Shown here piece after piece: positions 1 to 63,895 of a stretch of DNA of 64,000 nucleotides. Source of the DNA: Scenedesmus sp. PABB004. Lineage: Eukaryota. Position 1 is the first letter of the stretch; each line of letters starts with the position of its first letter. The notes beneath the pieces were generated by a model, which was not told where the DNA came from, did no database searches, and worked only from the letters and a program-made list of their open reading frames with translations. The DNA is taken from assembly GCA_014905635.1 (NCBI GenBank), contig JABVCE010000003.1:620001-684000 (forward strand), written 5' to 3'. A program made the position numbers and the translations under genes.

Positions 1-100
1 ATCACGACCGGCACGGCCGGCGTCAGGGGCGGCAGCAGCGTGTGCTCCACCGACGACGACGACAGCACCGCGACCGAGACGGTCTTTGCCATGACGGGTG

Positions 101-51568: not shown

Positions 51569-53752
51569 TCACTTGTGGGTGACGGTCACGACCTTGCCGA
51601 GCATGACCGCGGTGTTGCCGTCGAGGAAGGCGATGCGGGAGAGGCCCTCGCAGGCCTTGAACGAGTCGACGACGAGGGGCTGCACAGGCTCAAAGGTCAC
51701 CTGCGCCATCTCGTTGGCCTTGAGCGCGTGGGGCGCCTCCAGCTTCTTGCCGCCCGTCTCCTTGCCGACCTTCCAGTCGATCTTGGTCATGCGGCAGGCG
51801 GAGCGGCCGCAGCGCACAAAGCCAATCGGGGAGTAGCCGGCCTTGACCTCGCCGGGGATGTCCAGGGTCTGGATCTGCGCGGCCGCAGGGACGGGGCGCG
51901 GGCGCGGGGAGGCGGTCAGCGCACGCCGCGCGGCGGCGCGCGGCGGGGCGCGCTGGCGCTGCGCTGCCCGGCGCGCGGCCGCGCCAGCGAGCAGGCGGGC
52001 GCGCGCGGCTGGCGCGGGCGGCGCTGCCGGCGGCGGCGGCGCTGCGCGGCGTGCGCGCGCCGCACCTGGGCGGTGAAGTCCTTGCAGGGCTTGAGCGTCT
52101 GGTCGCTCTTGAGGATCATCACGTCGCCGGTGCGGGGCATGTTGCCCTTGTCGAGGCCCTTGATGTTCATGCCCACGTTGTCGCCGGGGCCGGCCTTGTC
52201 CACGCGCTTGTGGTGCATCTCCACGGTGAACACCTTGCCGACGCAGGGGTTGGCGGTGGTGTGGGTGGGCAGGAAGATGACCTCATCGCCGGGCTTGACC
52301 GAGCCCTGCTCCACGCGGCCGGCGAGCACGTCGCCCACGCCCTTGATCTTGTACGCGCCCGAGATGGGCACGCGCATCGGCGCGTCGGTCTTGCGCTCGG
52401 GCACGACGACCATGTCGTTCAGCGCCTGCGCGCGGCGCGGGGCGGTGGCGCGGCGGGGGCGCGTGAGCACGGGGGCGCGCGCGGGCTGCGCCGGCGCGCG
52501 GGCGGCGCAGCAGCAGGCGGCGCGGCAGCAGCCGGCGGGGCTGGCCGCGCAGGCCGCCGAGCGCGGCTGACGCGCAGACCACAGCTGCCGCCAGCGCGGC
52601 GCCCCGCCCCGCCCCGCCGCGCTGCGCGCCGCGCTGCGCTGCGCGTGTCGCCCCGCCGCGCGCGCGCGCGGCGCGGCGGCGCACTCACGTCGAGCAGGGT
52701 GGTGACCTTGATGGTGCGGTTGTCGAGCGTGCCGACGTCCTGGCCGGCCCACCAGGTCATCTTCTCGCTCTTCTTGATGAGGTTGTCGCCCATCCAGCCC
52801 GAGATGGGCAGGATCGGGACGTTCTTCTCCACAAAGTCCGGCTTCCAGCCCACGCGCGCGAGCATGTGGCGCATCTCGTCGCGGATCTCCACGTAGCGCT
52901 CCTCCCTGCGCGCGGGCGCAGAGGCGGGCGGGCGGGCGGGCGCGGGTGAGCGCGGCGCGGCGGCGCGCTGGGCGGCGCGTGGGCGCGCGGCGCTGCGGCT
53001 GCCGCGCGCGGCGGGCTGGCGCCGCGCAGCGCGCCGCCGCGCCGCCGCGCCGCCGCCGCCGGCCGGCCCCGCGCCGCCAGCCGGCAGCCCCGCGCGCGCG
53101 CGCGCTCACTTGTAGCCGGCCACGTCGCTGTCCATCTTGTTCACGCCGACGATGAGCTGCTTGACGCCGAGCAGGTTGATGAGGCGCGCGTGCTGGCGGG
53201 TCTGGCCCTGGATCTCGGCCGCCTTGTGGTCGCCCTTCTGGATGGCGGTGGTGAAGTTGCCGTCGGCGGGCACCATGAGCAGGCACACGTCGGCCTGGGC
53301 GGCGCCGGAGATCATGTTCTTGATGAAGTCCCTGTGCCCGGGCGCGTCGATGATGGTGTAGTGCCACTTGTCGGTGAAGAACTCCTTGGTCGTGCACGAG
53401 ATGGTCACGCCGCGCTCGCGCTCCTCCTTCTGGCGGTCCATGTAGAAGGCAAAGGCGAAGGACTGCTTGCCGAGGGCGGCGGCCTCCTCCTTGAGCTTCT
53501 CCAGCTCGCGCTCGGGGATACCGCCGAGCTCGAACAGCAGGCGGCCGGTGGTGGTGGACTTGCCGGAGTCGACATGCCCTGCGCGCGTCAGCGAGCGCGG
53601 CGGGGCGCGGGCGGCGTGAGGCGCGGCGCCGCGGCGCGGGGGCCGCCGCGCATGGCGCGCGCCCGGCCCCGCCCCCAGGCGCGCGACGAGGCTCGCCGGG
53701 GCGCGGTCTTACCGCAAATGACGATGGACAGATGCTGCTTGCCCTCGGCCAT
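51569..53752 (-). CDS. EFL: Elongation factor-like protein (EFL; eEF1A paralog)
   Basis: [84 protein letters not shown] are EFL-type signatures. 5'UTR intron ~53758-54090. TGTAA at 51164-51168 (minus). Confidence 0.96.
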
Positions 53753-54424
53753 CTTGCCTGCGCGCGAGGTGCGGCGGCGCGGCAGGGCGGCGCGTGTGAT
53801 GGCGCCGAGGATCAGCGCCGCGCCGCCCGCGCCCCGCGCCGCGCCGCAGCCCGCCCCGCCGCCCGGTTGCGGCCCCGGCGCGCCATCGCCGACCGCCAGG
53901 GGCGGCGCCGGCGCCCCCGCGTGGCCGCGCCGGCGGGTGGGAGGCGCGGCTGTTGCGGCCGCGCCGGCGCTCGCGCGCCCGCGCTCGATCAGGCGCGCCG
54001 CCGGCCTCCGGGGCGAGGCGGGAGCCCGCCCCGGCGGTCACCCATGCCCGCGCAATCCCCCCGCGCCCGGGCGGCGCGGCGGGGGCGCACCTGGATGTGG
54101 TGCTGCGGCCCCGGCGGGTACAGCGGCTGCTTGCTGCTAAACGCTGGTGGCGGACACCAGGCGCGACTCGCAGGAGCAAAGGGGCGGGCGGGCGGGCGGC
54201 GCGCCGCCTAGCGCGAGGCGAGTCTTAAACCGCGATAAAGTGGGCGTGCTCCCCGGCCTCGCTACCGCCGTGGGAGCGCCGGCCGGTGGTCTCAACACCG
54301 GCGGCTGGGGGGATGGGGGCTGCCGGGGCGCCCCGGGGGGCGCCCCGGCGCCGCGGGCGCGCGGCGCGCGTGCGCGGCGCTGCCACCGCCGCGCGCGCGC
54401 CGCGGCGCCGCCCCCAACACCGAC

Positions 54425-54660
54425 CATGGGCAGCCTATCAACGCCGGCCGCCTGAAACAGGCCACAGCGGCGTGAGGCATGACGGCTTTGGGACCGGCCC
54501 GTCGGTCGGTGCCCCGCGAGGGGCCCCGCCGCACCCGGAACGGGTGACAAGGCGAGAAACGCACGCGCACACGCCTGACCTAACCTGGCAACACAACACA
54601 ACAGCAAGAGGCCTTTTAACGTCCTGCCCAGGACGGAGAGCGCAGCGCACCGCACACGCC
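54425..54660 (-). ncRNA. Candidate Fanzor omegaRNA scaffold
   Basis: Immediately 3' of the Fanzor stop, with a cluster of stems: 54620-54635, 54532-54546, 54511-54524, 54481-54503 and nested 54441-54473. Inferred from position and structure only. Confidence 0.45.
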
Positions 54661-54662
54661 GC

Positions 54663-56475
54663 TCACGCCGGGGGGTCCACCGCGGCGGCGGCCGCCTGCC
54701 GGAACGCGCCGGCGAGGCGCGCGCCGCCCGCCGTGCCGCGGCTGCCGCGCAGCAACTCGTGCAGCGTGAGCGCGCAGATGTTGCGCGCCGCGTTGTCGTC
54801 GCGCGGCGCGACGACCGTGCACCCGGGGCACTGCACCAGACCATAGATGCCCCGCAGCTTCTCCACGCGCGCCCCGCAGACAGAGCAGGTGACGCTCGTG
54901 CGGTGCTCGTCCATGAGCACCGCGGCGACGCGCCGGCGCGCGTAGTAGGTGCGCAGCAGCGCCAGCAGCGCCTGCCGCGGCGGCCCCGGCCCCGAGATGC
55001 AGCCCCCCATGCCCAGGCTGGCGTCCCCGATGCCCAGCACCACCGCGGGCAGGTCGGCGGGCAGGCGCGCGTGCTGCCGGACGCGCCCGCGCACAAAGAC
55101 CCGGCCGTATGCAGTCAACTGAATCGCCGCATGCAGCGCGCGCTGCTTCAGCCCGTGCTTCCGCAGCCGCCACGCACACTCTGCACGGCACGCAAGCAAG
55201 CTATATGCGAATGCATTGTCCAACACATGATGCACCCGGCCGTTGCGCCACGCCCCGGCGGCGGCGACGCTCGTGCCCGAGTAGGCAGGCACGCGGTTCA
55301 GGCAGGCATGCACGCAGTCGCCGCCGCCGGGCGGGCGGCGGTCGTACCGCCCCGGCCGCCCCGGCCGCCCCTGCTGCCACAGGCAATGCCGCTCGATCCC
55401 GCGCGAGTCGCGGTGCGCGGCGGTCTTTATTCGGATGATGCGCTCCGCCTCGTAGCGGCGGCCGTGGTCGCCGCGGTGGCGCGGCGCGTTGGGGCAGCGC
55501 CGCTGCGCGATGCGGCGGTGCGCGACGCGCGTGCAGCCCGGGCCCTGCCGCCAAGTCGCGGCGCATATCATGCGCGCCCGGCCCGGGTCGATTCCAACTA
55601 TGCGCACGCCCGCGTGCACGGCCGCGGCCGCGCCGCGCAGCGCGTGCCCCGGCGGCAGGCCCTCCACGCCGCGCAGCTCGCACGGGTCGAGCGGCAGCGC
55701 GTCGAGCGCCGCCTCGTCGGCCACGCCGTGCGGCGCCAGCGCGTCGCAGAGCAGCCGCCGCGCTGCCTCCACGCCCGCGCGGTGCTCTGCCGCGCGCTGC
55801 GCCGCCTTGGCGGCGCGCGACTGCTGGCCGCGGCGCGGGGCGGGGTCGGCGGCGCCCTCAACGCGCACGCGCACGTGCAGCGCCGCCAGATCAAACGTCA
55901 CAGAGCCCGCGAAGCGCGTGTTGGCGTGCAGCACGCCGCGCGCGCGCCCGGGGCGCCGGCCAAAATCAAAATATGCATCCCAAACGGGATCGTAGCCCCC
56001 GCCCTCTTGGGTCGGCGGTGGCGGCGGCGGCGGCGGCGGCGGCTGGCCTGCCGGCTGGCCCCCCGCGGGCGCCCTGGCCTGGCGCGCGCGCAGCGCTGCG
56101 TCCAGCGCCTGCATGCCCGAGGTGGACAGGTGCAGGTGCTGGGTGCCGTACTTGGGCACCGGCGCCAGCGTGAAGGCGCGCCGCTTGGGCAGCGCCACGC
56201 GCGCGGCGTGCCGCGAGCGCAGGCCGCGCAGCACCTTGCACGCGCCCGTGACCGCGACGAACGCGTCGGGGTGCTGCCCCGCGCCGCCGGCGCGCTGCGG
56301 CGGCTGCGCGCCGCCGCTGCGGCCGCCGGGCGGCGCCGGCGCCGCGCCGGCGGCGGTCGCCGCAGCCAGCACCGCCTCGAGCGTCGCGCACACCGCGTGG
56401 CGCCAGCCGGCCGAGACATCGCGACGCAGCGCCGCGACAGCCGCCGCCGCCTCCTCGGGCGTGCGCGGCGCGCGC

Positions 56476-56520
<45 letters not shown>

Positions 56521-59500
56521 GCCGGCGGCGCCGGCGCAGCGCGACCCTGCGCGGCCGCTGCGGCGGCCAGGTGGCCGCGCGCGGCCGCCAGTCGGGCGCC
56601 GCAGTCGCCCAGCAGCCGCGCGCCCTGGTCGCGCGCGGCGCGCGCGGCGTCCGCCGCGCGGCGGGCCGCGTCCGCGTCGGGCGCCACCGCCGCGCCGTGC
56701 GGTCGCGCGAGGGCCCGCTGGTGCTGCACGAGCGCCGCGTCGCGCTCGTGGTGCTGCGCCATGGCAGCCTGCCACTCCGCCTCCACGGCTGCGAGGTCGG
56801 CCCCCACCGTCGCGTCGCCGGCGGCGGTCAGCGCGGCCAGCGCCAGCCGCAGCCGCTCCGCGGCCGCGGCCGGCAGCGCCGCGCCCGGCCCCTGGCCCGG
56901 CGCCGCGCCCGGCGCGGCGCCTTGCCCCCGGGCGCGGAGCAGCCGCGCCTCCTCTACGGCCAGCCGGCGCCGGAGCGCCGCCGCGTGCGCGTCCTTGCGC
57001 TGCAGGCGGCGCAGCCGGTTGCGGGCGTGGCGATCAGGGACCGTAGCGCCGGCGACCTCCCGCTGCAGGCCCTTGAGGGGTTCCTTGCGCAGACGCACGG
57101 CCGCCTCGCTGGCATCCACGGCGGCGCGCAGGCGCTGCACCGCCGCCTCGAGCTTGCCCAGCTCGCGCGCCCGCTGCAGCTCGCGCAGGCGCGGCTCCTG
57201 GGCGCTGGCGTCCAGCAGCTTGGGGGGCGCCGGCGGACGCTGGCCGCGGCTGCGGCTGCTGCTGCTGCTGCCGCTGCCGCTGCCCCCGCTGCTGCCGTCC
57301 AGCGCCTCTGCCAGCGACTCGACGGCCGCCGCGAGCGCGCCGGCCGACGCCGGCTCCGGGGCCGCCCCGAGCGACGCGGCGCGGCGCAGCATCGCCTCCA
57401 GCGCCGGCCGCGCCGCCGCGCCCTGCTGGGCTGCCAGCGAGTCCGCGAGCCGCGGCGCGCAGGCAGCAAACATGTGCTGCTGGCCGAGCATGACGACAAA
57501 GTCGCGCGCGACGCGGCGCGCCATGGCGTCGGCATCGCCCTCCCGGTACGCCAGGCCCTCGAGCTGCCGGGCCAGCGCCGCGCGCCAGGCGTCGTAGGCC
57601 GCGTCGTGCTGCTGCCGCGCCGCCGCGCCCGCGCCGTGCGCCAGCGGCTCCGGCGGCTGCGGCACGAGCGGCGCGCCCCCTGCCTGCGCGCCCGCGTCCG
57701 GCGCGCGCGGCATGCCGCTCCGCGCCCAGTCGAGCACGCGGCCGTGCTTGCCGGCGGCCTCGTCCGACTCCCAGCGCTGCAGGCTGGGCGTCGCCTGCGC
57801 CCCTGCCGCCTGGCGCGTGCGCGCCGCGCCGGCCGCGGGCGCGCGCGCCTCGCCGTCCGCCGCCGCCGGGTAGGGCTGCTCCAGGTGCAGGCGCATCTGC
57901 GCGAGCATGTCGCGCATCATCGCCATGGCCAGCCGCAGCCGGCCGGCGTCCTGGCCGTCGCCCGCCGCCGCGGGCACCACGCCCTCGCCCGGCTGCAGCA
58001 CGCCCTGGCGCTCCCAGAGCAGCGGCGACGCGCTGTACAGCAGCGCCGCGCCGCCGGCGATGAGGCAGTCGCGCGCGGCGCGGCTGGGCGTGCCGGCGCA
58101 GCCCGCGGCAAACCACGCCTGCAGGGCGGCGGCGTCGAGCGCCTTCTCCAGGCGCTGGCCGTCAGCGAGGTGGAGCTGCATGTTGGTGTTGTACAGCTCC
58201 GCGAGAGGGTTGAGCAGGTGGTGGTGCAGGGTTCCGGTCACCCAGGCCGGCAGGGGCACGCGCTGCAGCTCGTTGACGCCGCAGGCCTGCTCCAGCGCGT
58301 GGCGCAGGTCGCTGGACAGGCCGGTGCCGTGTCGCCGCCAGTTGCCCTGGCTAAAAAAGTTCATCAGGTCGTACACGAGCGGCGCGCCGCCGCACGCGGC
58401 CTGCAGGTAGCAGGCGCACGCGGGCGGCGGCGGCGCCGGCTGCTGGGCTGGCGGCGCTGCGGGCGGGGGCTGCTGCTGCTGCGGGCCCTGCTCCTGCGCC
58501 GCCGGCTGCGGCGGCGGCTGGCGCGTGTCCAGCCCGTACAGCCGGCTGCGCAGCGGGCGGGCGGGCGGGCGGGCGGCGCGACTCGGCGGGCGGCGCGGAG
58601 GAGGGGGCGCAAAGCGCGCGGGCGCGCCCCACCCGCGCGCGCGCGCACCTCGCCCCATACACGAGCGCCACGTGGTGCGCGTCGCGGCCGAGGATGCCCA
58701 GCCGGCTGTAGGCGCACACGAGCGCCTCGAGGTAGGGGACCACCTCTGGCTTGCGCACGGCGCCGCGCAGCGCGCAGACGCGCACGCCTGAGGCGGGCGG
58801 GCGGGCGGGCGGGCGAGGGCAGGTGAGGGGGGCGCGGGCAGGGCGCGGGGCGGCGGCGGCGCTGGGTGCCGAGAGAGCGGCCCGGCGGCCCGGCAGCGCG
58901 CCGCGCGGCGGGCACACTCACGCATGCCAGAGCCGGCCGCTGCCTTTTTGGCCTGCTCGGTCCGTTTCTTGCTGCGCTTGGTGAAGTGGCGCGGCAGCGC
59001 CTGCTGCTGCTGCCGCCCTGCCTTGTCGCCCGCCTCGGCCGCCGCTGCACCGCGCGCGGGCGAGGCACGCCCCGACGCCTCGTCGGCGCCGCGTGAGCGC
59101 TTGCGGCGGCCGCGCGGCGCCGCCGCCGCGCCGCCGCGCGAGCGCGCGCGGCCGCCGCCGCGCGAGGGCGTGCGGCCGCCGCGCGTCGCGGCCTTGGCGC
59201 TGCCGCGCGAGCGCGCGCGGCCGCGGCCGCGGCTGCGGCGCTGCGCCGCGTCGGCGCCGCGCGCGCGCTTCGCCGCCGGGCCGCCCTCCTCCTCATCGCT
59301 GCTGGCCGCGGCGCTGCCGGCGGACCAGCCGACGCTGGCGGCGGGCGCCGAGAGCACCGCCGCCATCGCCGCCGCGCGGGCGGCCTCGCCGCGGGCCTGC
59401 GCGTGGCGGCGCAGCGCCTCCCAGTCGGCGCCGCTCACGGGCTGCGCCGCGCGCTCGGCGGGGTCGATGCCGCGCGCGGGCGGGGGGCCCGGGGTGCCCC

Positions 59501-61086
59501 CGCCGCTGCGCGCGCCGCTCGTGCCGCCGCCGGTGCTGCTGCCGGCGCTGCCGCCGGCGCTGTCGCTGCGCGCGCGGCTCGTGCCGCCGCCGCTGACGCT
59601 GCCACTGCGCGCGCCGCTCTGGCCGCTCTGGCCGCCGCCGCTGGCGCCGCCGCCGCGGCGCGCGTGCTTGGCGTCGTAGCTCGCGCGCTGCTTGGAGCGC
59701 CGCACGTCCTCGTCGGACGGCCCGGCCGCCTCGGCGCGCGCCTTGGACGCGTCGAGCTCCGCGCGGCGCTCCACCGGCTTCTCCCACGCCGCGTCGATGG
59801 CGGCGGCGGTCGCGGCGCGGCGGCGGCGGCGGCTGCTGCTGCTGCTGTCGCTGTTGCTGGTGCCCAGCGGCGCCGCGGCGCCGTTGCCCTTGCCGCGGCG
59901 CTCCTTGCGCCCGAGCTGCTGCGGCTGCAGCGGCTGCAGCGGCTGCAGCGGCTGCAGCGGCTGCCGCGGCTGGCCCGCCGCCGGGCCGCCCTCCTCGTCG
60001 CTGCTGTCCGTGGCGAGCTCCGCGGCGCGCGGCGCCGCCTCCTGCAGCCGCTGCTGCGCCGGCGCGCCGCGCGGCGGCTCGCGCACCTGCTGCAGCTCCG
60101 CCGGCGCGCCGCGCGGCGGCGGCCTGCGTGCCGGCACCACCGCCGCCCAGTGGTTGAGCGGCAGCGGGTTTTGCGCCCCGAGCACGGGCGCAAACTCCGG
60201 CGCCGCGGCGGCCGGCAGCGCGAGCGCCACGAGCCGGTTGCCCTCGCTCGCCTGGAACGCGTCGCCCTGCTCCTGCAGGGCGATGAGGAGCGTGTCAGGG
60301 CTGTAGACGTCGGTCAGGAAGACCAAGTCTGCCAGGCGCATGCACAGCGCCCGCAGCTCAGCCTCGCTGGGGTAGCCCCCGGCCTCCAGGTCTCGCGCCA
60401 GCTCCTCCACGGCGTCCGCGCCGGCCACGCCGAGCACATCGCGCCAGGGCACGCCGCTCGGGTGCAGCTGGTCGCTCAGGCCCAGCTCGCGGATGAGCTC
60501 CACCGTCCGCGACCGCAGCTCGCCCGCCTGCTCGTCCAACATGTCCAGCACGTCGGGTTCGAAACTGCGCAGGTCGTGGGTCGGCTCCTGCAGCTCCGCC
60601 GCCTCCAGCATGCGCAGCACGGCAATCGCAATGAGGGAGAACCCGCACAGGCCGTTGGCGCGGCCGTGCACGAGCGCGTACCCCTTGTCCTCCAGCTCGC
60701 GCTTCAGCAGCGCGAGCTGCGCGCCGGTGCACGTGCCCGCCGGCGCCATGAGCTTCGGCGGCGCCCGCGCTGGCGCGCCGCGCGGCGCGGCCGCCGGCGG
60801 CTGCCGCTGCAGCGGCGGCGGCACGGGCGGCGGCGGCGCCGGCGCCGGCGCGCCGCGCGGCGCGGCTGCCGGCGGCTGCCGCTGCTGCGGCGCCACGGGC
60901 GGCGGCGGCGCCGGCGCCGGCACCGGCGCGTCGTCCGGCCGCGGCGCCGGGCTGCCGCCGCGCCAGCCGCTCCCGCTGACGCTGCCGCTGCCGCTCCCGC
61001 TGCTGCTGCTGGGCCCGGGGCTGCCCCTGCCGCCACCGCCGAGCGCGGCTGCGCGGCCAGGGCCCGGCCCGCGCGCGGCGGGCAGC

Positions 61087-61120
<34 letters not shown>

Positions 61121-61708
61121 GGGGCGGCGCTCGCGCGCCACGGTGCGCCACTCGGCCGCCGCGTCGCTGGGCTGCCGCCCCTGCTGCGGCGGCGGCTGCG
61201 GCGGCTGCGGCGGGCTGCGGCTGCGGCTGCGCCCGCCGCACGGGGCAGGCGCGGCCGCCGGCGGCTGCCGCTGCAGCGGCGGCGGCACGGGCGGCGGCGG
61301 CGCCGGCGCCGGCGCGCCGCGCGGCGCGGCTGCCGGCGGCTGCCGCTGCTGCGGCGCCACGGGCGGCGGCGGCGCCGGCGCCGGCACCGGCGCGTCGTCC
61401 GGCCGCGGCGCCGGGCTGCCGCCGCGCCAGCCGCTCCCGCTGACGCTGCCGCTGCCGCTCCCGCTGCTGCTGCTGGGCCCGGGGCTGCCCCTGCCGCCAC
61501 CGCCGAGCGCGGCTGCGCGGCCAGGGCCCGGCCCGCGCGCGGCGGGCAGCGCGCCGCCGCCGCCGCCGCCGCCGCCGCCGGGGGGGCGGCGCGCGCGCGC
61601 CACGGTGCGCCACGGCGGCGACGCGTCGCTGGGTTGCTGCCCCTGCTGCGGCGGCGGCTGCGGCGGGCTGCGGCTGCGGCTGCGCCCGCCGAACGGGGCG
61701 GGCACGCC

Positions 61709-61744
<36 letters not shown>

Positions 61745-62090
61745 AGGGTCGCCAAGCGTAAACACCGCCGCCTGCTCATCGGGCGTGAACCCGATGTCCC
61801 AAAACCCCGGCGGGGTCTCGGGAGGCGCGTGCTTGGCGCGGTGCCGCGACGCGGCCTGCAGCGCGGCCGGGGCCAGCGCGTGCGTGCACGGGAGCAGCAT
61901 CATGGTGCCCGGCGCCGGCGCGCCCCAGGTGGAGAGGGCGCCGTAGAAGTCGCGGCACTGAGCGCAGTCGTGCCCCGGCAGGTCCTGGCGCGCCGGCCCG
62001 CGCACCACCTCCTGGTACGCGAAGCCGCCGGCAGCGGGCGGCTGCCGCGGCGCCGACGCGCCCGCGCGCTGCTGCTGGTGCTGGTGCTGG

Positions 62091-62123
<33 letters not shown>

Positions 62124-62392
62124 GGCGGCGGCGGCGGCTGCAGCCAGTCCTCCTCCTGCCCGCGATACGCGCGGCGCCAGCCGGCGCCCGCCGGCGGCGG
62201 GCGCGGCTGCGCCGGCGCCGCCGGCTGCGGCGCGGGCTGCGGCGCGCCCCAGTTCAGCACCGGCAGCGCGAAAAGGCCGGCGGGCGCCACGGGGTGCGCG
62301 GGATCGGCCTGAGCCGGCGCGCCGGCGCGCTGCTGCGCCTCCTGCTGCCCGCCGCCGATCGGCGGCGGCGGCGGCTCCGGCTCCGGCTCCAT
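54663..62392 (-). CDS. Giant Fanzor1-type RNA-guided nuclease with N-terminal Sae2/CtIP-like and OTU-like domains (two introns; one apparent 1-nt frameshift at ~61119-61124)
   Basis: RuvC-I RIVGIDPGR (D 55587-55589), VLGIGDAS, RuvC-II MDEHRTS (E 54906-54908), CSVC...CPGC zinc finger, RuvC-III RDDNAARNI (D ~54798-54800), upstream FTLAPVPK. GT-AG introns 58788-58921 and 58546-58648 restore VRVCALRGAVRKPEVVPYLEALVCAYSRL. Confidence 0.85.
60130..60700 (-). other. OTU-like cysteine protease domain within the Fanzor ORF
   Basis: YALVHGRANGLCGFSLIAIAV (Cys at 60645-60647), LRSRTVELIRE, YPSEAELRALC, NHWAAVVP (His at 60150-60152); same order as OTU Cys loop, LR helix, E-helix and His strand. Confidence 0.6.
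60770..61690 (-). repeat. Intragenic tandem duplication (~464 bp unit) with shorter internal sub-repeats; Pro/Gly/Ser-rich linker
   Basis: GGGGALPAARGPGPGRAAALGGGGRGSPGPSSSSGSG...PPAAAP occurs twice; anchor ggcagcgcgccg at 61081 and 61545. Confidence 0.92.
61787..62023 (-). other. Sae2/CtIP (COM1) C-terminal domain
   Basis: FAYQEVVRGPARQDLPGHDCAQCRDFY...SRHRAKHAPPETPPGFWDIGF contains the EVVR, CxxC, RHR and TPxxFW motifs that define the CtIP/Sae2 domain. Confidence 0.88.
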
Positions 62393-63370
62393 GGCGCCCA
62401 GCGCGCCCTCAGCCGAGGCCGTGGCGCCTGACGGCGGGGCGGCGCGGCGCGGCGCGGGGCGGCGCGGGGCGGCGGCATGAATCTTCCGGAACGCGGCGGA
62501 GTGCGCGATCCGAGCGGCCGCGACGCACGCACCACACACGCGCCTCACAGGCTGCTGTCCATCGCGGCGCGCGCCGGCTTGGGCTTGGGCTGCCGGCAGC
62601 GCGCGCGCCCCAGTCGCCCGATCGACCGGCTGTGCATCGCGGAAGGCTCTCGCCGGGCGCGGGTGACCGCTGCGTGCCTCCGACCGTGAACGATCTGGTG
62701 CCCAAGCGCCGCGCACCGGATTGTGCAGACGGTCGCGGCGTGCCGCCTGAACCGCCGAGCAGCCCCGACGCGCGTGCTCGCCCGCCCGGGGGGCGGTACT
62801 CTGAATCGACGACGCTAATTGGAGATTCAGGCAGCTCATCGCCGGGGCAGCGCAGGCCGCGCGGGCCGCGCAGGCGTGGTGCAGGCGTGATGGCCCACGT
62901 CGACGACGCGACCGTGCTGCGCGACGCCGCGCTCGACGCGGCCGCGTTTGGCGGCCCGCCGCCCGCGCTCGGCACCGCGAGCACCGCGGTGCTGCCGCGC
63001 ACGGCGGTGGCGTGACCCACGGGCGGCGGCGGCGCAGCGGGCGCGCGACGGCCGGCAGGCGGGGCAGCAGGCGGGGCAGCAGACGTGGCAGCGCGCTGGC
63101 GGCGCGTCCGACGAGGCGGCAGCAGCGCAGGGGGGGGGGGATGCGACGAGGTGTGGCAAGCCAGCGGCTGGGCGGGTGGTGGTCGCGCGGGGCAGCGAGC
63201 GAGCCAGCGGTGGGGCGGGGTCCGGTGCCGGCGTGGGGCGATTCTTTGACCGTGGCTGGTGACAGCGGGCGCGTGCCAGTTGCGGGGGCGGGGCGGACGG
63301 GGGCGTTGGTTGCTTGCGCGCCACTAGCGCGGGGACGCTAATACTAGCAGCACAGCGGGGGGACGTGAGG

Positions 63371-63895
63371 TTAACCTAAGCTGCCCGACGCCGACGCGCT
63401 GCCGCGCCGCGCCGCGCCCGCCGCGCCCGCGCCCGACGCCGACGCGCTGCCAGCCCTCGCGCGCGCCGCCGCGGCCGCCGCCGCGCCCGGCCGCCGGCGG
63501 CGCCGCGCGGCGGCGTCGGCGACCTCGCGCCGCAGCTGCTCGACCAGGCGCGCCGCGAGGCGCGCGACCTCGTCGTCGTGGTGCGCGCGCAGGCCCTTCA
63601 GCGTCCGGCCCAGCTGCGGCGTCGCGGCCAGCTGCTCCTCTCCCAGGCGGTAGCAGGCGAGCTGGCGCAGCGCGCCGCGCACGCCCGCGAGCGCGCCCGG
63701 CGCGCCCGGCGGCGCACTCAGCGCCGCGAGCAGGCGCGCGAGCTCCGCGCCGTCGGCGCTCTGCGCCGGCAGGAGCACGACGCCCGCGCAGTCGGCTATG
63801 CGCGCCTGGCGCTGCGCCGTCCGCCTGCGCGGCTGCTGCTGCTGCTGCTGCTGCTCCTGCGTCAGGGGGGCGAAGAAGGCCGTTATCTTCGCCAT
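63371..63895 (-). CDS. Small TFIIS-N-terminal (Med26/LW-like) helical domain protein with PIP-box-like N-terminus
   Basis: ALRQLACYRLGEEQLAATPQLGRTLKGLRAHHDDEVARLAARLVEQLR; N-terminal KITAFF. Confidence 0.65.
   Translation of the reverse strand: MAKITAFFAPLTQEQQQQQQQPRRRTAQRQARIADCAGVVLLPAQSADGAELARLLAALSAPPGAPGALAGVRGALRQLACYRLGEEQLAATPQLGRTLKGLRAHHDDEVARLAARLVEQLRREVADAAARRRRRPGAAAAAAARARAGSASASGAGAAGAARRGSASASGSLG

Follow-up and report, generated by a model that had tools for sequence, protein, structure and literature searches.

We report that a 64,000-nucleotide (nt) stretch of the green alga Scenedesmus sp. PABB004 (contig JABVCE010000003.1, positions 620,001 to 684,000; the whole stretch is referred to as the window, and coordinates count from its first letter) carries on its minus strand a gene for a Fanzor, an RNA-guided nuclease. 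The locus is a Fanzor of unusual make-up and is not placed in the Sae2/CtIP or OTU families: the nuclease body of approximately 1200 amino acids (aa) stands behind a basic disordered region of approximately 390 aa, this region follows a Cys/His domain, and a Sae2/CtIP domain is encoded ~1 kb upstream of these parts on the same strand. An earlier note on this DNA had proposed that all three domains belong to one protein. We consider such a three-module fusion to be the best overall explanation, with a probability of roughly 0.5, and we put it slightly above even odds that Sae2 module and Fanzor share, or shared until very recently, one polypeptide or reading frame.

The nuclease part of the gene has the following features, with residues numbered along the long open reading frame (ORF) described below:

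54666..58545, minus strand: Fanzor body, a long N-terminal part followed by RuvC-I, the RuvC-II Glu, the zinc finger and RuvC-III (profile and motif)
55589-55587, minus strand: RuvC-I D2009 (motif)
54908-54906, minus strand: alternative RuvC-II Glu, E2236 (alignment with PDB 9b0l)
54887-54819, minus strand: C4 zinc finger, C2243/C2246/C2262/C2265 (motif)
54803-54798, minus strand: RuvC-III RD, R2271-D2272 (motif)

In agreement with the earlier note, which had claimed a Fanzor1 body with an intact RuvC D-E-D triad and zinc finger, all of these residues are present, and Pfam gave a match to Cas12f1-like_TNB (PF07282) with E 6.3e-10 and 39.5 bits against a cutoff of 26.3; the NCBIfam model guided_TnpB matched with E 1.1e-4 and 21.6 bits, below its cutoff of 100. 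The Fanzor/TnpB motif given by Bao & Jurka (2013) is D-X(125,275)-[TS][TS]-X-X-C4-X(5,50)-RD, and it is represented here by D2009, 229 residues, T2239-S2240-V-T-C2243 and five residues from the zinc finger to RD. In the alignment with mimivirus L79 (PDB 9b0l; E 0.0054) E2236 is set on E467. E467 of mimivirus L79/ApmFNuc is an alternative RuvC-II glutamate, and E467A abolishes cleavage. Since the motif residues are kept and E2236 falls on E467, the nuclease end looks catalytically intact as judged from its sequence. Distant TnpB-like matches restricted to the last ~150 residues were found at 15 of 276 metagenome loci and at 1 of 14 viral loci; these are silent on the architecture.

The Sae2 part of the locus comprises two features:

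62030..62392, minus strand: N-terminus of the Sae2-frame ORF, 121 aa rich in Pro and Gln, from a putative start at ATG 62392-62390 (translation)
61787..62029, minus strand: SAE2/CtIP C-terminal domain (Pfam PF08573)

The earlier note had placed a Sae2/CtIP domain on the minus strand, and a Pfam search of the stretch 62392-61743 recovered it (PF08573, E 6.6e-13; bit score 50.1, cutoff 19.8). The translation reads CxxC, SRHR, PPETP and GFWDIGF, which we take to be the CxxC, RHR, TP and FW..GF motifs of the family. The best Sae2 relative is a 594-aa protein of Trebouxia sp. C0006 (P0004), with 46/101 identity (46%) over its residues 492-586 and its SAE2 domain at residues 495-590, at the extreme C-terminus. 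Only one Sae2 relative of 309-984 aa was found among 7999 scored candidates, others having probably been crowded out by low-complexity words, and this count therefore supports no inference on a canonical Sae2 gene in the alga. Compared with Sae2/CtIP/COM1 proteins the C-terminal domain is the same and its position differs: here it stands near the N-terminus of the open frame, which runs at least 360 codons past it, whereas the canonical algal protein has it at the C-terminus and stops eight residues after GFWDMGF. Neither the canonical N-terminal region nor the C-terminal placement of the domain is found at this locus. The third-position GC (GC3) signal of the Sae2 frame starts near 62410; there is no codon periodicity in 62400-63300, and the kilobase upstream of the Sae2 start is without coding signal until an unrelated Med26-like ORF.

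Downstream of the Cys/His domain the gene is further divided as follows:

58922..60101, minus strand: low-complexity Ser/Gly/Arg-rich region, ~390 aa, with basic patches resembling nuclear localisation signals (NLS) (translation)
58788..58921, minus strand: intron 1, GTGAGT...CAG, 134 nt (canonical ends)
58649..58787, minus strand: mini-exon, 139 nt, in a frame other than that of the long ORF (the codon-phase signal switches frame)
58546..58648, minus strand: intron 2, GTGCGC...GCAG, 103 nt (canonical ends)
54663..54665, minus strand: stop codon TGA (sequence)

The window comes from the nuclear genome of a scenedesmacean green alga with ~80% GC. Its GC content is 74-82% in every 2-kb bin, and the codon-phase profiles show many short exons with GC3 above 0.9 that alternate with aperiodic stretches, which identifies the DNA as nuclear and from a very GC-rich eukaryote; the neighbouring genes are multi-exon with GC3 bias and the Fanzor gene contains spliceosomal-type introns, as expected for eukaryotic coding. 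The Cys/His domain and the Fanzor make up one spliced nuclear gene, because GC3 is 0.9-1.0 in one frame and the two predicted introns jointly keep that frame. Specifically, the minus-strand ORF 54663..61613 has 2316 codons (a second minus-strand ORF, 60704..62839, is in another frame), and GC3 in the Fanzor frame is 0.9-1.0 from ~61000 down to 54700, with dips to 0.55-0.85 near 59100-58930, 56000 and 55200. Over the basic region the values are 0.95-1.00 (60101-59130) and 0.75-0.95 (59108 to 58922), and the NLS-like patch that the earlier note had described is seen in the translation as KRSKKR and RGRRKRSRG. The Fanzor frame is interrupted at 58921-58546 only. Introns 1 and 2 add up to 237 nt (79 x 3), which is why the long ORF reads straight through both, and the spliced product is without internal stop. 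Of the earlier proposal that OTU and Fanzor share one uninterrupted frame, the single gene thus stands, whereas the frame as such reads through two introns and an off-frame mini-exon.

Long ORFs occur on both strands in DNA of this kind, and an open frame alone is therefore little proof. An example is a 1355-aa antisense ORF (54759-58826, plus strand) over the Fanzor body. We read this ORF as a by-product of the high GC3 on the coding strand and not as a gene: antisense to the Fanzor body one frame is free of stops and the remaining two have 11 and 13, and the codon-phase signal over this ORF fits the minus strand. Such ORFs would be the reason to regard the whole locus as an artefact of 80% GC with chance ORFs and chance domain matches; this we consider practically refuted by the Pfam E-values of 6.6e-13 and 6.3e-10, the frame-specific GC3, the homologous copy described below and a shuffle control, in which 2000 rounds of position-specific shuffling of the 2316 codons never gave a stop-free frame (mean 16.3 stops).

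The frame in which the Sae2 domain is read meets that of the Fanzor within the linker:

60784..61700, minus strand: two tandem Pro/Gly/Ser/Ala-rich linker units with a period of 464 nt (self-alignment)
61119..61124, minus strand: homopolymer, G6 on the plus strand and C6 on the coding strand (Sae2-to-Fanzor codon-phase switch)

Both the duplicated low-complexity linker and the G6 run that is G7 in the sister repeat, as claimed in the earlier note, were found. Positions 60784-61083 are identical to 61248-61547 (300 nt, 100%, spacing 464), the aligned copies being identical over ~355 nt and ~91% identical over their 5' ~110 nt, and the sister unit carries G7 at 61580-61586. Between ~62410 and ~61090 the GC3 signal stays in the Sae2 frame without a break; at the homopolymer it changes to the Fanzor frame. 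The two frames become one if a base is added at G6 or if a 464-nt unit is taken out, and the product of ~2500 aa after one-base restoration and splicing was reproduced. Moreover, the upstream copy of the linker yields its amino-acid unit in the Sae2 frame, and the downstream copy yields the same unit in the Fanzor frame; the sequence therefore implies that Sae2, linker and Cys/His domain were in one frame before the duplication. The 1-nt offset, which lies inside a young 464-bp duplication, would then reflect an error of the assembly or a frameshift that this copy acquired recently. The codon-phase and GC profile gives no GC drop resembling an untranslated region (UTR) and no intergenic-looking DNA between the Sae2 and Cys/His domains. 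TGTAA, the chlorophyte poly(A) motif, is absent from 53500-63500 and occurs four times in the whole window.

Several results weigh against a fusion. The assembled sequence has the downstream ORF in a frame other than that of Sae2, and the linker (61742-60750) is free of stops in all three frames, where 0.2-0.5 would be expected, so that its openness is no evidence of fusion; triplet repeats alone could also produce its periodic GC. No second instance of the three-domain architecture was found, and the one related protein, discussed below, is informative from residue 1380 on only. What remains of the earlier proposal is thus that Sae2 and Fanzor are contiguous on the same strand with nothing that resembles a stop, a UTR or intergenic DNA between them. 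The differing frames and the uninformative openness of the linker also speak for two separate, unlinked genes: a short Sae2-like paralogue (ATG 62392 to stop 60704) and an OTU-like-Fanzor gene starting at Met289 (60749), juxtaposed when the Fanzor unit was inserted or duplicated beside, or within, the 3' end of a gene derived from Sae2. This explanation, which we hold to be possible and rather unlikely, is helped by the ATG immediately before the Cys/His domain, by the second PABB004 copy in another neighbourhood and by the reported tendency of Fanzor1 genes to be carried by transposons and to land in varied contexts. It would require the two ORFs to overlap by 46 nt, the Sae2 frame running into the downstream ORF as far as its first stop (60704), with no TGTAA and no UTR-, promoter-like or low-GC sequence between; nor does it account for an identical linker unit of which one copy continues the Sae2 frame and the other the Fanzor ORF, or for a phase flip situated exactly at a homopolymer that is one base off its twin.

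The offset might also be bypassed in expression, through a -1 ribosomal slip on C CCC CCG, transcriptional slippage or a cryptic intron with a GTGCGG donor at 61241, yielding a short Sae2 protein together with a long fusion. A -1 slip at the C run would enter exactly the Fanzor frame, and the donor at 61241 resembles that of intron 2 and has in-phase AG acceptors downstream. We nevertheless regard a bypass as highly improbable: the eukaryotic -1 rules do not favour C CCC CCG as a slippery heptamer, a run of six is short for transcriptional slippage, and the candidate intron would carry a coding-like phase signal. No listed contig piece from four metagenome runs bridges the homopolymer or the duplication, since the contigs break at repeats. 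Separately, GC-rich bacterial contigs accumulate on 60848-61515.

Between the linker and the basic region lies the third module:

60102..60749, minus strand: Cys/His domain, from Met289, candidate OTU-fold cysteine protease (coding signal, motifs)

Residues 289-504 give the strongest coding signal in the gene (second-position GC 0.25-0.75 against GC3 0.90-1.00). They hold a Cys box NGLCGF (Cys323, 60647-60645) and a His box LNHW (His488, 60152-60150), 165 residues apart. In the ESM Atlas, PF02338 (OTU) was carried by 18 of the 30 neighbours overall and by all 30 of the named ones, in only 19-34% of their members; the scores were 0.90-0.92 (0.90-0.91 for the named ones) and the shared features 158-171, as compared with 170 typical of true family members. 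On the other side of the account, OTU is without support at E<=10 in Pfam or the Protein Data Bank, and likewise in NCBIfam, phmmer gave no matches for the domain among 1.84 billion representatives, a word-indexed search gave no relatives among 8000 scored candidates of 418-2000 aa, and the single-sequence AlphaFold model is unusable, with a predicted local distance difference test (pLDDT) value of 43; this low-confidence model sets the Cys at the start of a helix at 34-50. There were also no relatives among 597 pattern matches in metagenome contigs and 36 in viral contigs. The OTU-like domain of the earlier note consequently keeps its Cys and His boxes and its language-model neighbours, and it lacks backing from profile or sequence searches. 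Based on the sequence, the domain is probably divergent, papain-like and of OTU type, and a putative thiol protease; the OTU identity as such is weakly indicated, by the motifs and a protein-language-model lead and by these only. The Cys/His motifs resemble Ulp1/C48 boxes, but their order is wrong for these. A deubiquitinase of the VTD type was considered and rejected, as the Asp-x-His motif is missing (the domain has L-N-H).

With 95-99% likeness, contigs from the four metagenome runs cover both flanks, the Sae2 and Cys/His domains and portions of the Fanzor; the variant counts given here come from 40 of 101 variant rows. Over 54869-55284, seven of the ten listed variant rows are synonymous third-position changes, and one 603-nt contig has four synonymous changes and one V-to-I change, the latter also present in the second PABB004 copy. 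These natural variants point to constraint on the nuclease end, as far as sequence can indicate it. Farther upstream, at 58157-58332, six of nine listed variant rows are nonsynonymous, which detracts from that picture. As a separate observation, six adjacent base differences at 58324-58332 (contigs of the metagenome runs X2 and X5) change two codons of the N-terminal part of the Fanzor; the cluster may be a small replacement or the mark of a paralogue. At 54701-54802, contigs of the runs X5 and X6 join 54700 to 54803 with nine other letters in place of 102 nt, giving a variant copy that is without 34 codons just after the RuvC-III motif.

That variant, the frameshift together with a fresh non-triplet duplication in the linker, and the fact that transposon ends and guide RNA were not found would suit a decaying relic, that is, a formerly fused or mobile Fanzor that is now a frameshifted pseudogene kept open by GC. 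We judge this improbable. High GC does not keep 2316 codons open in the shuffles, and 13 and 7 stops occur in the two remaining frames of the Fanzor body; every catalytic and zinc-finger residue is intact, the introns retain their canonical ends and the frame, and most of the listed variants of the nuclease end are synonymous.

A single close relative of the long ORF was found, KAF8061370.1 (P0003; 3130 aa), also from Scenedesmus sp. PABB004, which matches residues 1380-2316 (the last 937) with 863/980 identity overall and ~96% at aligned positions. Its Fanzor copy lies between CreA and Maf1 genes, whereas the window copy lies between Med26-like and EF-Tu-like genes. A ~96% identical second copy in another neighbourhood indicates, at the sequence level, a recent duplication or move of the Fanzor unit. 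The match starts at an exon boundary of the model, and a 5' truncation of that copy is therefore not readable from it. The protein is annotated as 'mannose-1-phosphate guanylyltransferase 2' and is a chimeric model that combines CreA, the Fanzor copy, Maf1, NTP_transferase/GMPPB and Big_9, probably due to rare stop codons in the GC-rich genome. There is no other Fanzor copy within the window, and three simple gene models of the window had no exact match among the collected proteins.

A guide RNA would be expected in the flank downstream of the stop codon:

54406..54662, minus strand: 3' flank, lower GC, expected guide RNA site (kept in metagenome contigs, ~93% likeness)

Green-algal Fanzor1 genes are reported to sit in Helitron2 elements, to be often 5'-truncated and to have the guide RNA in the 3' UTR. 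Here the 3' flank is aligned to a metagenome contig with 17 other letters and two gaps over 269 nt. The search for element hallmarks also added to the points against: no guide RNA was identified in the flank, with a fold z-score of -0.14, and no convincing transposon ends or target-site duplication were found, the 1097 inverted-repeat pairs all being low-complexity. Rfam gave five weak miRNA-type matches in the flank (E 0.14-0.61), far below the gathering score. Contig depth over 54400-55400 relative to 57000-62100 is ~2x in X1/X2 and ~10x in X5, contig depth being a poor measure; a higher depth at the 3' end would fit extra 5'-truncated copies, as in the Chlamydomonas Fanzor elements.

If the fusion is real, the Fanzor would make a guide-directed break, and the tethered Sae2 C-terminal motif (TP as a cyclin-dependent kinase site, RHR, FW..GF) would locally stimulate clipping by Mre11-Rad50. 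The break could then be resected and repaired from a homologous copy bearing the element, the thiol protease might strip ubiquitin-type marks or stabilise the complex, and the outcome would be that retention or homing of the element is promoted in an organism otherwise favouring end joining. The ~2500-aa polypeptide would in that case represent a self-contained homing cassette of Fanzor, Sae2/CtIP activator and thiol protease or deubiquitinase, a description that we offer tentatively and consider unlikely to hold in full. A repair-steering function, with Sae2 stimulation, protease editing and repair by homology, is similarly doubtful and speculative. An N-terminal oligomerisation region is needed for CtIP function, and no coiled-coil or oligomerisation region is evident in the translation of the 121 Pro/Gln-rich residues before the SAE2 domain. 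The case for steering is weaker because the Sae2 piece is without this region, which together with the frameshift argues against a present-day function of this copy.

Comparison with known systems shows how far the locus departs from them. With green-algal Fanzor1 (Chlamydomonas CrFNuc / CRe-1..3 in Helitron2; Bao & Jurka 2013, Jiang et al. 2023) it shares a nuclear location, introns, an N-terminal basic/NLS-like sequence, the D...TS-xx-C4...RD arrangement, the alternative RuvC-II glutamate and multi-copy or varied contexts; unlike in the Chlamydomonas Helitron2 Fanzors, Helitron2 ends, target-site duplication and guide RNA are not identified here. Compact Fanzors have ~600 aa, whereas the ORF here is roughly 2240-2500 aa, with the added Cys/His domain and possibly the Sae2 C-terminal domain. 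OTU/VTD deubiquitinases in Helitron/Helentron ORFs, as presented by Erven et al. (2022), have in common with our locus a thiol-protease-like domain in a mobile-element ORF with the Cys before the His; in contrast to these, there is here no Pfam OTU match, no VTD Asp-x-His and no Rep/helicase, and the host is an alga, the Helitrons reported to carry VTD being from animals.

The questions addressed by such a locus are what Fanzors do for eukaryotic elements and how breaks are channelled into copying as opposed to error-prone joining. In engineered Cas9-CtIP fusions a resection-promoting part of CtIP, an N-terminal fragment, is tethered to an RNA-guided nuclease; by analogy, here the C-terminal Sae2 domain would be tethered, in a natural protein if the fusion is real. 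Bacterial TnpB-assisted transposon retention by homologous recombination has reportedly been described by Meers and co-workers in 2023, and it provides a rationale why a transposon-borne RNA-guided nuclease gains from recombinational repair of its cut. To our knowledge, no retention role has been shown for any Fanzor. A Fanzor coupled to a Sae2/CtIP end and a protease-like domain would make the question of benefit to the element directly testable. If true, an RNA-guided nuclease joined to repair-pathway effectors would be known from nature for the first time, and it would offer a natural design for homology-directed editing; leaving the Sae2 link aside, there is still a Fanzor whose orphan N-terminal extension is unusually large. 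In a library of open-access papers we found none that combines Fanzor with Sae2; one review with Fanzor and CtIP and two papers with Fanzor and deubiquitination were unrelated, as were the three listed of four with Fanzor and OTU.

Finally, two genes flank the Fanzor locus. Upstream, a 174-aa ORF (MAKITAFF..., 63374-63895, minus strand) has a weak match to the Med26/TFIIS helical bundle (Pfam E 8.5e-4, 19.5 bits, cutoff 20.6); it appears to be a separate small gene that ends ~1 kb upstream of the Sae2 start. Downstream, 0.9 kb from the Fanzor stop, there is an EF-Tu-like translation GTPase gene (51916-53752, minus strand; GTP_EFTU_D2, E 1.3e-13), with a likely start at ~53752 and a GTAAG intron directly after it.

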